Shown: in pieces, positions 61,974-64,000 of the stretch
Layout: each line of letters opens with the position of its first letter
Position numbering within the stretch: position 1 is the stretch's first letter
Origin: Escherichia coli
GTDB taxonomy: Bacteria > Pseudomonadota > Gammaproteobacteria > Enterobacterales > Enterobacteriaceae
NCBI RefSeq assembly: GCF_030013205.1
Contig: NZ_CP122648.1
DNA length: 64,000 nt
Reading direction: 5' to 3' (one strand)
Position numbers and translations under genes: made by a program
The notes under the pieces: generated by a model
What the model was told of the DNA's origin: nothing
The model's input: only the letters and a program-made list of their open reading frames with translations
Database searches by the model: none

Positions 61974-62871
61974 TTATCGCCCCGTAGTGGATATCAGAAA
62001 ATCAATCAGGGCCTTCACTCTTTTCGTTTTACCCGCGTTTTTGGGGTAATAGAGATACACTGGCGGGTAGGTTTTCCAGTAGCTCTCCATCACCGGAATA
62101 AAGCGCTCCCTGTCCGGCTGTAACTGCCAGACAGGCTCAAACAAGCGCCCAATTCCCAGCCCGTTACGGATCCCGTCTGCCATAACGTCAATATCGTTGC
62201 TGATTAACTGCCCCGGCATCTCAACGGTCAACTGCTCACCGCGATCGTTCAGGAGCAGCGGAAGGATGCGGTTGTTGGTGATAAAACGGTAACCAATCAG
62301 CTGGTGATGACAGAGATCTGCCGGCACTTCAGGCGTTCCATGTCGGGAGAGATACGCTGAGAATGCATATAATCCTTCACGAAACGGTTTCATTAACGGT
62401 CGGGCCCCCCCCTCCCTCAAGAATATCGCCAAAACGGATCCCCAGATCAAAACGCTCTTTGATGATATTCACGGTACCGTCGTAGACCGAAATTTCTAAC
62501 TGTATACCCGGATATTGCTGACAGAATTCTGCCATCGCAGGCTTAAGAATTAACAGGTAGGCAAAACGCGAGAGCGTAATTCGCACCATCCCTGAGGGCT
62601 CCTGATGCTGGTCGCGAATGCTTTCAAGTGAGTTTTCCAGCGACTCCACCGCCGCAGCGGTCTGTTCCAGCAATAATTGACCGGTTTCCGTCAGCTCTAT
62701 ACGGCGGGTCGTACGCACAAAAAGCGGATGACCGATATACTCTTCCAGCAGATTTAGTGCATTGCTGACGGAGGGAGGCGTAATTTCCAGTTTCCTTGCG
62801 GCTGCCGAAATATTGCCCTCCCGCGCAATGCTCTGGAAGATGCGAATCTGGTTATAAAGAGCGTTATTCAT
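61974..62871 (-). pseudogene. LysR-family transcriptional regulator split by a +1 frameshift inside a G8 (coding-strand) homopolymer
   Basis: N-terminal HTH and inducer-domain start in ORF 62377..62871; remainder in ORF 61974..62450 in a different frame; frames switch at the C8 run at 62405-62412 (plus strand). Confidence 0.7.
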
Positions 62872-63007
62872 AATGTTTTCCTAAAGCAATTCTCGCCTGA
62901 TTATTAGGTACAGTCTAAAAATGCTTAAGTCAATGACCCTCTAATCTTCCTGAAATACGCCTCTTATACTTTAGTCTCTTTCTACTACGACCTGAGTTCA
63001 GGAGACT

Positions 63008-63319
63008 ATGATGCGAATTTTATGTCTGGATATCCCTGCCCCTGGAGCATCGCTGGAGAAATATGCTCCGCACCTCAACGCTGAAGCGCTGCACGCCTGG
63101 GGATTGTATAAATCAGGCTTCATCCGCGACATCTACTTCCGTCAGGACAGACCTGGCGTCGCTATTTTTCTTGAATGTGACTCTGTCGATGAAGCGATGA
63201 ACGTTATGGCCGAATTCCCGTTGGCAAAAGCAGGCTTACTAAGCTTCGAGTGTATACCGCTTGGCTCCTTTATTAACTGGGAAAATCTCTTCGCCGATGA
63301 ATTTAAAAATAAAGAGTGA
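63008..63319 (+). CDS. Small alpha+beta-barrel protein, muconolactone-isomerase-like
   Basis: 103 aa; divergent from the LysR gene; local pattern similar to recalled muconolactone isomerase sequences. Family assignment is tentative. Confidence 0.5.
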   Translation: MMRILCLDIPAPGASLEKYAPHLNAEALHAWGLYKSGFIRDIYFRQDRPGVAIFLECDSVDEAMNVMAEFPLAKAGLLSFECIPLGSFINWENLFADEFKNKE

Positions 63320-63327
63320 GGACCGAT

Positions 63328-64000
63328 ATGAAACCTGCATATAAACCAGTGCTATGTGTCGTTTCCAGCCATCCGATTAAAGGCGCATCCGGTGTACCAA
63401 CCGGTTTTTTCCTGGCCGAGCTGACTCATCCGCTGAAAGTACTGGAAGATGCCGGAATAAAAACAACAATAGCCAGTATTCGCGGGGGGCAGCCACCGGT
63501 GGATGGATTTAACCTCAGCGACCCTGTTAACGCCTGGTACTGGAACGAAACCGATTTTCAGCAGCGCCTGGCAACAACACCTGCGTTATCCGAGCTGAAA
63601 GGTGCCGATTACAGCGCAGTTTTCTTTGCAGGTGGTCATGGGACCATGTGGGATTTCCGTGATAATCAGGATGCCCAGCGTATTATCCGCGAAGTGTATG
63701 AAAGTGATGGGATTGTCTCAGCCGTCTGCCACGGGCCTGCGGCATTGGTTGACGCAAAACTCAGTAGCGGCGAATACCTGATAAAAGGGAAAAATGTGGC
63801 GGCCTTTACCAACAAGGAAGAGGAAGAAGTTCACACAACAGATGTGGTTCCCTTCCTGCTTGAAACCGCACTTCGCGAGCATGGTGCGCTTTATCATGAA
63901 GCTCCAAACTGGTCTGAAAACGTGGTTACCGACGATCGCCTTATCACGGGGCAGAATCCCGCTTCAGCACATGGGGTTGGTGTGGCGCTGTTAAATGCAC
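63328..64000 (+). CDS. DJ-1/PfpI-family protein (class I glutamine-amidotransferase-like), 3-prime end beyond the window
   Basis: ATG at 63328 with GAGTGAGGA upstream; nucleophile-elbow-like motif SAVCHGPAAL; frame open to the window end. Confidence 0.7.
   Translation, partial: MKPAYKPVLCVVSSHPIKGASGVPTGFFLAELTHPLKVLEDAGIKTTIASIRGGQPPVDGFNLSDPVNAWYWNETDFQQRLATTPALSELKGADYSAVFFAGGHGTMWDFRDNQDAQRIIREVYESDGIVSAVCHGPAALVDAKLSSGEYLIKGKNVAAFTNKEEEEVHTTDVVPFLLETALREHGALYHEAPNWSENVVTDDRLITGQNPASAHGVGVALLNA

Follow-up and report, generated by a model that had tools for sequence, protein, structure and literature searches.

What is the gene cluster that follows hipA in some Escherichia coli chromosomes for, and can it still respond in the strain studied here? 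The window (the whole stretch of DNA analyzed, 64,000 nucleotides of contig NZ_CP122648.1, assembly GCF_030013205.1) ends in three genes between positions 61974 and 64000: a LysR-type regulator on the minus strand and, on the plus strand, an open reading frame (ORF) for a 102-amino-acid (aa) protein, called the small protein below, followed by a gene of the DJ-1/PfpI superfamily. A preliminary description of this DNA had proposed a LysR-controlled detoxification or aromatic-catabolism-related module. We give a probability of about 0.6 to the reading that the cluster is an accessory operon which LysR activates and which counters reactive quinones and carbonyls, with inducibility probably lost in this strain. 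Detoxification under LysR control is indeed the best reading of the full gene content (a DJ-1 protein, reductases, and a divergent LysR gene); the aromatic part of the proposal is weak, as the segment contains no ring-cleavage dioxygenase, cycloisomerase, enol-lactonase, or thiolase. We prefer detoxification because a DJ-1 protein together with YdjG-like and KefF- or WrbA-like reductases represents the enzyme types that E. coli has against glyoxal, methylglyoxal, and quinones. In this species, glyoxalase III and the aldo-keto reductases are known to deal with both aldehydes independently of glutathione (PMC5297802). The cluster is composed of known families and is already annotated family by family in RefSeq; experimentally, it is uncharacterized.

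Enzymes encoded by the operon

The DJ-1/PfpI gene stands at the end of the window. Of its 229 codons, 224 lie inside the window and the last 5 beyond its end, and its start is separated by 8 bp from the stop codon of the small gene. The DJ-1/PfpI membership and the SAVCHGP nucleophile motif read from the letters in the preliminary description are both confirmed, with a match to PF01965 at an E value of 3.1e-16 (60.1 bits against a cutoff of 26.6) and a predicted catalytic triad that aligns with that of the yeast protein. Its matches among PDB sequences are 4p5p (1.5e-48) and 1u9c (3e-41), both from structural genomics and uncharacterized, yeast YDR533c (4e-29), and the Candida albicans glyoxalase III 4lru (1.3e-27), with E. 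coli HchA and human DJ-1 much lower in the list. In the HMMER alignment, Cys134-His135 fall on the Cys-His pair of yeast Hsp31, Glu165 on the Glu of the triad, and Glu31 on the N-terminal Glu; the yeast residues are Cys138, His139, Glu170, and Glu30. The models of the E. coli proteins score far below their cutoffs (67 bits against 365 for HchA and 60 against 139 for PfpI/YhbO). Judged by sequence, none of the four DJ-1 proteins of K-12 is orthologous to the window protein, for which glyoxalase III activity is the best-supported prediction.

The preliminary description expected the operon to run on past the window. Its continuation past position 64000, which we read from the identical strain ETEC1748 and from strain Ecol_316, does contain further reductases, ABM and CMD genes, and a broken Amidohydro_2 gene. 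The gene order after DJ-1 is an aldo-keto reductase, fragments of an Amidohydro_2 gene, a Flavodoxin_2 oxidoreductase, a second aldo-keto reductase, a double ABM protein, a double CMD protein, a fragment of yneL, and a fimbrial operon. Both aldo-keto reductases are closest to the methylglyoxal reductase YdjG, the Flavodoxin_2 protein is an NAD(P)H oxidoreductase closest to KefF (6e-44), and the double CMD protein resembles PcaC (8e-33, below the cutoff).

The small protein

The product of the first gene of the operon had been called muconolactone-isomerase-like, with an alpha+beta fold, and this description stands for the fold and the superfamily, the nearest solved structures being ClcF/muconolactone isomerase and the YCII proteins TftG and HI0828, but not for the family, since PF02426 (muconolactone isomerase, MIase) gives no match to the protein even at an E value of 10 or less. 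Against YCII (PF03795), it reaches 12.3 bits with a cutoff of 24 (E value of 0.25), and a match to a short-chain dehydrogenase/reductase (SDR) model in the NCBIfam and Pfam scans (E value of 0.13) is at noise level. A PDB sequence search with the single protein returned no significant match, and the best hit of a 25-sequence profile was TftG, with an E value of 0.065. The fold is much clearer: an AlphaFold model made with 25 homologues (pLDDT of 91) has a beta-alpha-beta-beta-alpha-beta layout, and its Foldseek neighbors, at a TM score of about 0.7, are ClcF (5-chloromuconolactone dehalogenase, of the MIase family), TftG, and HI0828/YciI. Both the MIase-type ferredoxin-like alpha+beta fold and the YCII fold describe the protein.

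Family models do pick up its relatives. Among 37 diverse ones, 25 match PF02426 (best E value of 2.4e-8) and 29 match PF03795 (best 2.1e-6), both at an E value of 1 or less, and precomputed PF02426 matches exist for distant members of the family. By the thresholds of PF02426 and PF03795, the protein belongs to neither family; it is a relative within the superfamily and not a muconolactone isomerase. The residues that are invariant or nearly so in the 37 sequences are Trp30, Glu55, Glu25, Arg39, Asp46, and Pro70. The nearly invariant Glu25 is placed by hhalign opposite Glu27 of CatC and ClcF with a probability of 20-43%, residue 27 being the position altered in the ClcF E27A structure, and the profile of the family shares the motif P-[LF]-x-K-A-G-L with the C terminus of TftG.

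The family, for which there is no Pfam model, comprises 381 clusters at 90% identity and about 1,389 representatives (that is, about 1,400 clusters) at 50% identity. Within it, a tight subfamily with 60-70% identity extends from Enterobacterales to Burkholderiales, Rhizobiales, Xanthomonas, a myxobacterium, and an acidobacterium. Fusions of the domain are mainly tandem duplications of itself; a single fusion to half an SDR looks like a gene-calling artifact and was discarded.

Conservation of the cluster in other bacteria

A scan of one genome per species found 80 loci encoding the tight subfamily. Removing a contaminated fragment and adding two loci by exact-sequence lookup left 81 loci from other bacteria, in which we counted the neighbors within 5 kb of the small gene. 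A LysR gene is present in 79 of them, divergent in 77. DJ-1 orthologues accompany the small gene in 56 loci, sharing its strand in 54, at a median offset of +705 bp; outside Enterobacterales, these DJ-1 orthologues are 52-64% identical. A WrbA-like NAD(P)H:quinone oxidoreductase lies directly upstream of the small gene in 44 loci, and an Ahr-like Zn aldehyde reductase lies between the small gene and DJ-1 in 24. Amidohydro_2 genes (41 of the 81) and CMD genes (20 of the 81) are the other recurrent neighbors. The intact Amidohydro_2 proteins of other bacteria are closest to LigW, gamma-resorcylate decarboxylase, and 2,3-dihydroxybenzoate decarboxylase.

In enterobacteria, the segment has mosaic versions in Rahnella, Pantoea, Raoultella, Rouxiella, Pectobacterium, Phytobacter, Kosakonia, Serratia, and Klebsiella pneumoniae, with 68-92% nucleotide identity, and their homology stops at the segment borders. 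Compared with orthologues in other genera, the dN/dS ratio (nonsynonymous to synonymous substitutions) is 0.03-0.13 for the LysR, small, and DJ-1 genes; by this measure they are real genes under strong purifying selection between genera and not chance ORFs. The hosts of the subfamily are mostly plant or soil associated, and this wide presence suggests plant phenolics as the natural source of the stress.

Two of the more distant loci deserve mention on their own. In Archangium violaceum (CP069396.1, locus L004), a LysR gene, a CMD gene, two aldo-keto reductases, a DUF2255 gene, the small protein, a zinc-dependent alcohol dehydrogenase (Zn-ADH), a double ABM gene, and a DUF1330 gene sit between recombinase/Y2 transposase and IS66 genes, a position that suggests horizontal movement of the module. 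A 1.1-kb contig in a metagenome-assembled genome of Collinsella (L016) encodes LysR and small proteins 100% identical to those of E. coli and is almost certainly E. coli contamination of the bin.

An accessory segment next to hipBA

The window comes from an E. coli chromosome, with positions 61577-64000 being 100% identical to porcine enterotoxigenic E. coli (ETEC) strains such as ETEC1748. Ahead of the cluster, it runs through a remnant of the Qin prophage, mar, lsr, an autotransporter gene, and hipBA. A BLAST comparison of an island-bearing region (L002) with K-12 shows homology ending 104 bp past the hipA stop codon and resuming 232 bp past the CMD gene. These breaks define a 7.76-kb accessory chromosomal segment between hipA and yneL, and window positions 61681-64000 are its left end. 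In K-12, the yneL pseudogene and the fimbrial remnants ydeT/S/R/Q follow hipA directly, in agreement with the regulator fragment and fimbrial remnants that the preliminary description gave for K-12 at this place. The segment is found in 457 of 5,426 complete E. coli genomes (about 8%), in one copy per genome and with at least 99% identity in 452 of them, so the cluster is accessory, with no assigned function, and did not turn out to be universal core sequence of known function. The non-coding left end, between the junction and the stop codon of the LysR gene, contains no conserved ORF, and Rfam gave no match there or anywhere else in 59700-64000.

The 7-bp direct repeat GTTAAAT stands at both ends of the segment (L002, 9098-9104 and 16867-16873), and K-12 has one copy. 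This pattern would fit either a target-site duplication or a microhomology-mediated deletion, outgroup genomes being needed to tell insertion from deletion. A mobile-element origin was considered and set aside: no integrase or transposase gene is annotated within the segment in ETEC1748 or Ecol_316, its G+C content (49.8%) is near that of the left flank (48.4%), and its ends carry just the 7-bp repeat. The right flank, on the yneL side, is merely 85% identical between K-12 and the island-bearing strain.

Control region and frameshifted regulator

As first described, the LysR gene points away from the other two, across a spacer that forms the divergent control region (Table 1). The length of this spacer (137-141 bp) and several blocks within it are conserved in 15 enterobacterial loci at an overall nucleotide identity of 68-92%. 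The candidate LysR-binding element has the consensus ATTATTA(A/G)GTACAGNCTAAA in the aligned loci and has its center near -66, counted from the inferred transcription start; the two conserved blocks that follow it would occupy the place of the LysR activation site, over the -35 region. A recognition site near -66 with an activation site over -35 is the usual LysR layout, and we infer from the alignment that the spacer holds such a pair, with these candidate elements as the sites where the regulator would bind. No good candidate for a -35 hexamer precedes the putative -10 hexamer. A terminator scan gave two terminator-like hairpins inside the small gene, within chance expectation. At position 62907, the window has G (TTAGGTACAG), whereas the other 15 aligned loci, including that of E. 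coli Ecol_316, have A or C. This G and the frameshift of the regulator described below occur in one and the same strain.

Table 1. Positions of genes, motifs, and regulatory elements at the left end of the segment (window coordinates)
Feature	Position	Strand	Basis or remark
Left junction, GTTAAAT	61674-61680		BLAST against K-12 and inspection of the junction sequence
Non-coding left end of the segment	61681-61973		From the junction to the LysR stop codon
LysR-type transcriptional regulator, full length, frameshifted	61974-62871	-	Pfam; alignment to the intact Ecol_316 allele; RefSeq "frameshifted"
Frameshift site, net -2 bp	62405-62412	-	Run of eight C on the plus strand (eight G on the coding strand)
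Divergent spacer, 139 bp	62872-63010		Between the LysR gene and the operon
Candidate LysR-binding element, ATTATTAGGTACAGTCTAAAAAT	62900-62922		Core TTA-N9-TAA at 62904-62918; intergenic alignment
Conserved block CTTAAGTCAAT, with palindrome CTTAAG	62924-62934		Intergenic alignment
Conserved block CTAATCTT	62941-62948		Intergenic alignment
Putative -10 hexamer of the operon promoter, TATACT	62965-62970	+	Invariant in 16 aligned sequences
Ribosome-binding site, AGGAG	63000-63004	+	6 nt before the ATG at 63011
102-aa protein, MIase/YCII (dimeric alpha+beta barrel) superfamily	63011-63319	+	
DJ-1/PfpI-superfamily protein, yeast Hsp31/Glx3 type	63328-64000	+	PF01965; PDB sequence matches
Codons of Cys134-His135, predicted catalytic triad, SAVCHGP motif	63727-63732 (Cys134 at 63727-63729)	+	

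The regulator itself had been read as a near-complete LysR gene. The gene is there, with HTH_1 and PF03466 matches, but it is a full-length pseudogene carrying a 2-bp deletion. It consists of two overlapping ORFs (62377-62871 and 61974-62450); HTH_1 (PF00126) matches with an E value of 7.4e-22 (77.5 bits against a cutoff of 26.6), and LysR_substrate (PF03466) is found on both halves, split over two frames and not in one polypeptide of about 300 aa. The intact allele of strain Ecol_316 encodes 299 aa, and alignment with it shows GGGGTGGTGG changed to GGGGGGGG in the window; the identical copy of ETEC1748 is the one annotated as frameshifted in RefSeq. This is a true member of the LysR family, with no named orthologue (the best NCBIfam match is YafC, 163 bits against a cutoff of 470). 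All of the HTH_1 domain lies in the N-terminal ORF (164 aa).

A 106-bp probe across the frameshift site matched 456 E. coli genomes, 15 of them with the allele of the window and 441 with the version that is 2 bp longer and that, among the matches listed, has the annotation of an intact regulator. Carriers of the frameshift include a Belgian ETEC series and the separately deposited swine isolate K_EC180. The allele thus recurs in assemblies from at least two different projects, and for this reason the frameshift is probably genuine, a recent mutation specific to one lineage and not an error of assembly.

Three genes of the segment are damaged in the strain of the window, namely LysR, Amidohydro_2, and CMD. 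The double-CMD gene is annotated as frameshifted in ETEC1748 and is intact in Ecol_316 (L001, 15830-16620). The Amidohydro_2 gene is fragmented in E. coli (L001, 12553-13229), about 355 bp short of the decarboxylase-like gene of Rahnella, which is apparently complete. Because the regulator is frameshifted, the CMD and decarboxylase genes are damaged, and the putative binding site is changed, the module is probably no longer inducible and decaying in this strain.

Proposed mechanism and competing explanations

In the mechanism that we infer, from inducer and substrates to promoter architecture and the part of the small protein, an intact LysR protein would bind the conserved element near position -66 of a promoter with a weak -35 region and on sensing an electrophile or its product would activate transcription of the operon in the order small protein, DJ-1, aldo-keto reductase, decarboxylase remnant, KefF-like quinone oxidoreductase, aldo-keto reductase, double ABM, and double CMD. 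The DJ-1 protein, through Cys134-His135-Glu165, would turn alpha-oxoaldehydes such as glyoxal and methylglyoxal into hydroxy acids without glutathione, or would repair adducts, and the reductases would clear carbonyls and quinones with NAD(P)H. The 102-aa protein may be a cofactor-free proton-transfer enzyme, of the isomerase, tautomerase, or dehalogenase type, acting on a cyclic enol, hydroquinone, or lactone intermediate. This last role is proposed by analogy to ClcF, CatC, and TftG and is the weakest link in the argument; the fold neighbors ClcF, TftG, and YciI are enzymes of lactone and hydroquinone chemistry.

Several observations weigh against this scheme. All the families involved are catalytically broad, so gene content cannot fix the substrate, and DJ-1 proteins have variously been called proteases, chaperones, and deglycases. 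The alignment of Glu25 with Glu27 has a low probability, and the small protein has no characterized close relative. The link to DJ-1 is absent in its more distant relatives (30-45% identity), some of which have SDR, Zn-ADH, acetyltransferase, or MGMT-like genes as neighbors. The hydroxybenzoate-decarboxylase-like Amidohydro_2, frequent elsewhere, points toward phenolic-acid metabolism over pure stress defense. In the divergent spacer, a consensus promoter scan gave no complete sigma-70 site, which is as expected for an activator-dependent promoter, though not proof of one, and the frameshift could be an assembly error. Finally, a literature search on LysR-linked glyoxalase III operons and on the hipA-yneL region found no paper on the cluster.

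The Amidohydro_2 gene leads to the idea that the cluster serves, or once served, as a module for the breakdown of phenolic or aromatic acids, in which a hydroxybenzoate-type decarboxylase, the MIase-like protein, and the CMD-like protein would feed a route resembling the beta-ketoadipate pathway. The MIase-like fold of the small protein, the likeness of the CMD protein to PcaC (the match being below the cutoff, as noted above), the linkage in half of the loci (41 of 81) of intact Amidohydro_2 genes closest to LigW and the resorcylate and dihydroxybenzoate decarboxylases, and the predominance of plant- or soil-associated hosts all agree with it. However, the E. coli segment also lacks a CoA-transferase and a transporter, besides the pathway enzymes named at the outset, and none of these genes is among the recurrent neighbors elsewhere; E. 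coli has the decarboxylase gene in fragments, PF02426 does not match the small protein of the window, and the recurrent partners, reductases and DJ-1, are typical of detoxification. We consider this idea quite improbable, since no ring-cleavage or downstream pathway genes are present. A somewhat better case, although still an unlikely one, can be made for a DJ-1 protein whose main activity is not that of a glyoxalase but that of a chaperone, an amidase/protease, or a deglycase of proteins or nucleotides, with the small protein as its accessory partner. Chaperone and deglycase roles have been assigned to Hsp31-class proteins (PMC5297802), and the small and DJ-1 genes, 8 bp apart here, are adjacent or nearly so in most loci. 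Yet among structures with a named function, glyoxalase III enzymes (4lru and yeast Hsp31) come closest, and the operon partners are small-molecule reductases.

The names given to the small protein in public records offer another explanation, that of a superoxide dismutase (SOD), the name it bears in many RefSeq and UniRef entries. A tie to the redox cycling of quinones, which generates superoxide, is conceivable, and the support for this function consists of the names alone. The identical protein is called "hypothetical protein" or "YciI family" in other records, and a literature search turned up no paper behind the SOD name. No match to an SOD family (Fe/Mn, Cu/Zn, or Ni) was found in Pfam (E value of 10 or less), NCBIfam (E value of 1 or less), or PDB sequences, there is no invariant or nearly invariant His or Cys for a metal among the 37 diverse members, and the protein adopts the MIase/YCII type of ferredoxin-like alpha+beta barrel, a fold that is, to our knowledge, unrelated to known SOD families. 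We regard the name as almost certainly wrong. As for the state of the module, the structural genes might still be expressed despite the frameshift, be it constitutively, under another regulator, or under the influence of the 164-aa N-terminal fragment, which keeps a complete HTH_1 domain; neither the small gene nor the DJ-1 gene is damaged, and both have the same sequence as in strains whose regulator is intact. The spacer, though, has no consensus promoter, LysR-type regulators normally activate their divergent operon, and the CMD frameshift together with the strain-specific change in the candidate binding element suggests relaxed selection. Continued expression thus has some chance of being real, but a minor one, and we retain the reading of an electrophile-detoxification operon that has probably lost its inducibility in this strain.

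Other features of the window

Two further loci in the window were noted in passing. Between eamA and marB (26148-32325), the annotation of the identical strain has a GntR regulator, a lactose/cellobiose-type phosphotransferase system (IIB/IIC/IIA), a carbohydrate porin, and a 6-phospho-beta-glucosidase; in K-12, eamA presumably adjoins marB, and the region looks like a second accessory cluster of the window. Upstream of hipB, at about 54700-59777 (long ORF at 55482-59777), the autotransporter gene of the "ECSE_1600 family" carries a frameshift annotation in ETEC1748 as well as in Ecol_316. The corresponding K-12 gene, yneO, is likewise a pseudogene, and this locus seems prone to decay in several lineages.

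Significance and comparison with known systems

About 8% of E. coli, at a fixed site by hipBA, and many plant and soil Proteobacteria carry this unstudied LysR-linked set of genes for quinone and carbonyl detoxification, which could influence survival on plant material or in a polyphenol-rich gut. In the present strain, the regulator is inactivated, and a working module is not to be assumed. The most useful leads are the conserved small protein, widely mislabeled as a superoxide dismutase, and its steady pairing with an Hsp31-type DJ-1 protein, which is a starting point for assigning both functions. One speculative extension, which we hold to be improbable but worth stating, is that the 102-aa protein belongs to an unrecognized enzyme family within the MIase/YCII superfamily and that its tight subfamily is the dedicated partner of Hsp31-type DJ-1 and WrbA-type quinone reductases. 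Its cofactor-free step (e.g., tautomerization or disproportionation of a hydroquinone, semiquinone, or enediol) would then complete a widespread, undescribed detoxification pathway for plant-derived electrophiles.

Among characterized proteins, the DJ-1 protein is most like yeast Hsp31 (YDR533c) and C. albicans Glx3, with which it shares a single PF01965 domain of about 230 aa, a full-length alignment, and an aligned Cys-His in an AVCHGP motif, downstream Glu, and N-terminal Glu. It differs from them in being bacterial, in having its activity predicted from sequence, with closest structures (4p5p and 1u9c) that are uncharacterized, and in being encoded right after a MIase/YCII-like gene in a LysR-linked operon. 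HchA (Hsp31), YhbO, YajL, and ElbB of K-12, for all four of which glyoxalase activity has been reported (PMC5297802), have the superfamily and the Cys nucleophile in common with it. In contrast to these four, the window protein represents a fifth type that is missing from K-12, and its alignment with HchA begins at about residue 72 of roughly 285, so that the N-terminal part of HchA has no counterpart in it.

The small protein resembles CatC and ClcF (PF02426) in its ferredoxin-like alpha+beta fold and in the Glu25 that stands opposite their Glu27, but it is only 15-16% identical to them, has no PF02426 match, and has no cat or pca pathway genes nearby. With the YCII proteins (TftG, a 5-chloro-2-hydroxyhydroquinone dehydrochlorinase, and YciI/HI0828), the likeness lies in the motif P-[LF]-x-K-A-G-L of TftG and in a hydroquinone chemistry, of the TftG type, that fits the quinone reductases of the operon; unlike TftG, the small protein, whose role is predicted, has Phe69 in place of the Asp of the DPF motif.

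As a unit, the cluster is best compared with the electrophile-response systems of E. coli, namely YqhC with yqhD-dkgA, NemR with nemA-gloA, and KefF/KefG with KefC/KefB (PMC5297802). It has in common with them a dedicated regulator and NAD(P)H-dependent reductases or glyoxalases against glyoxal, methylglyoxal, and quinones, and its Flavodoxin_2 protein is KefF-like. It differs in that its regulator is of the LysR type, with no named orthologue, in that it is accessory and not part of the core genome, and in that it adds a MIase/YCII-like protein and double ABM and CMD proteins to the usual set.

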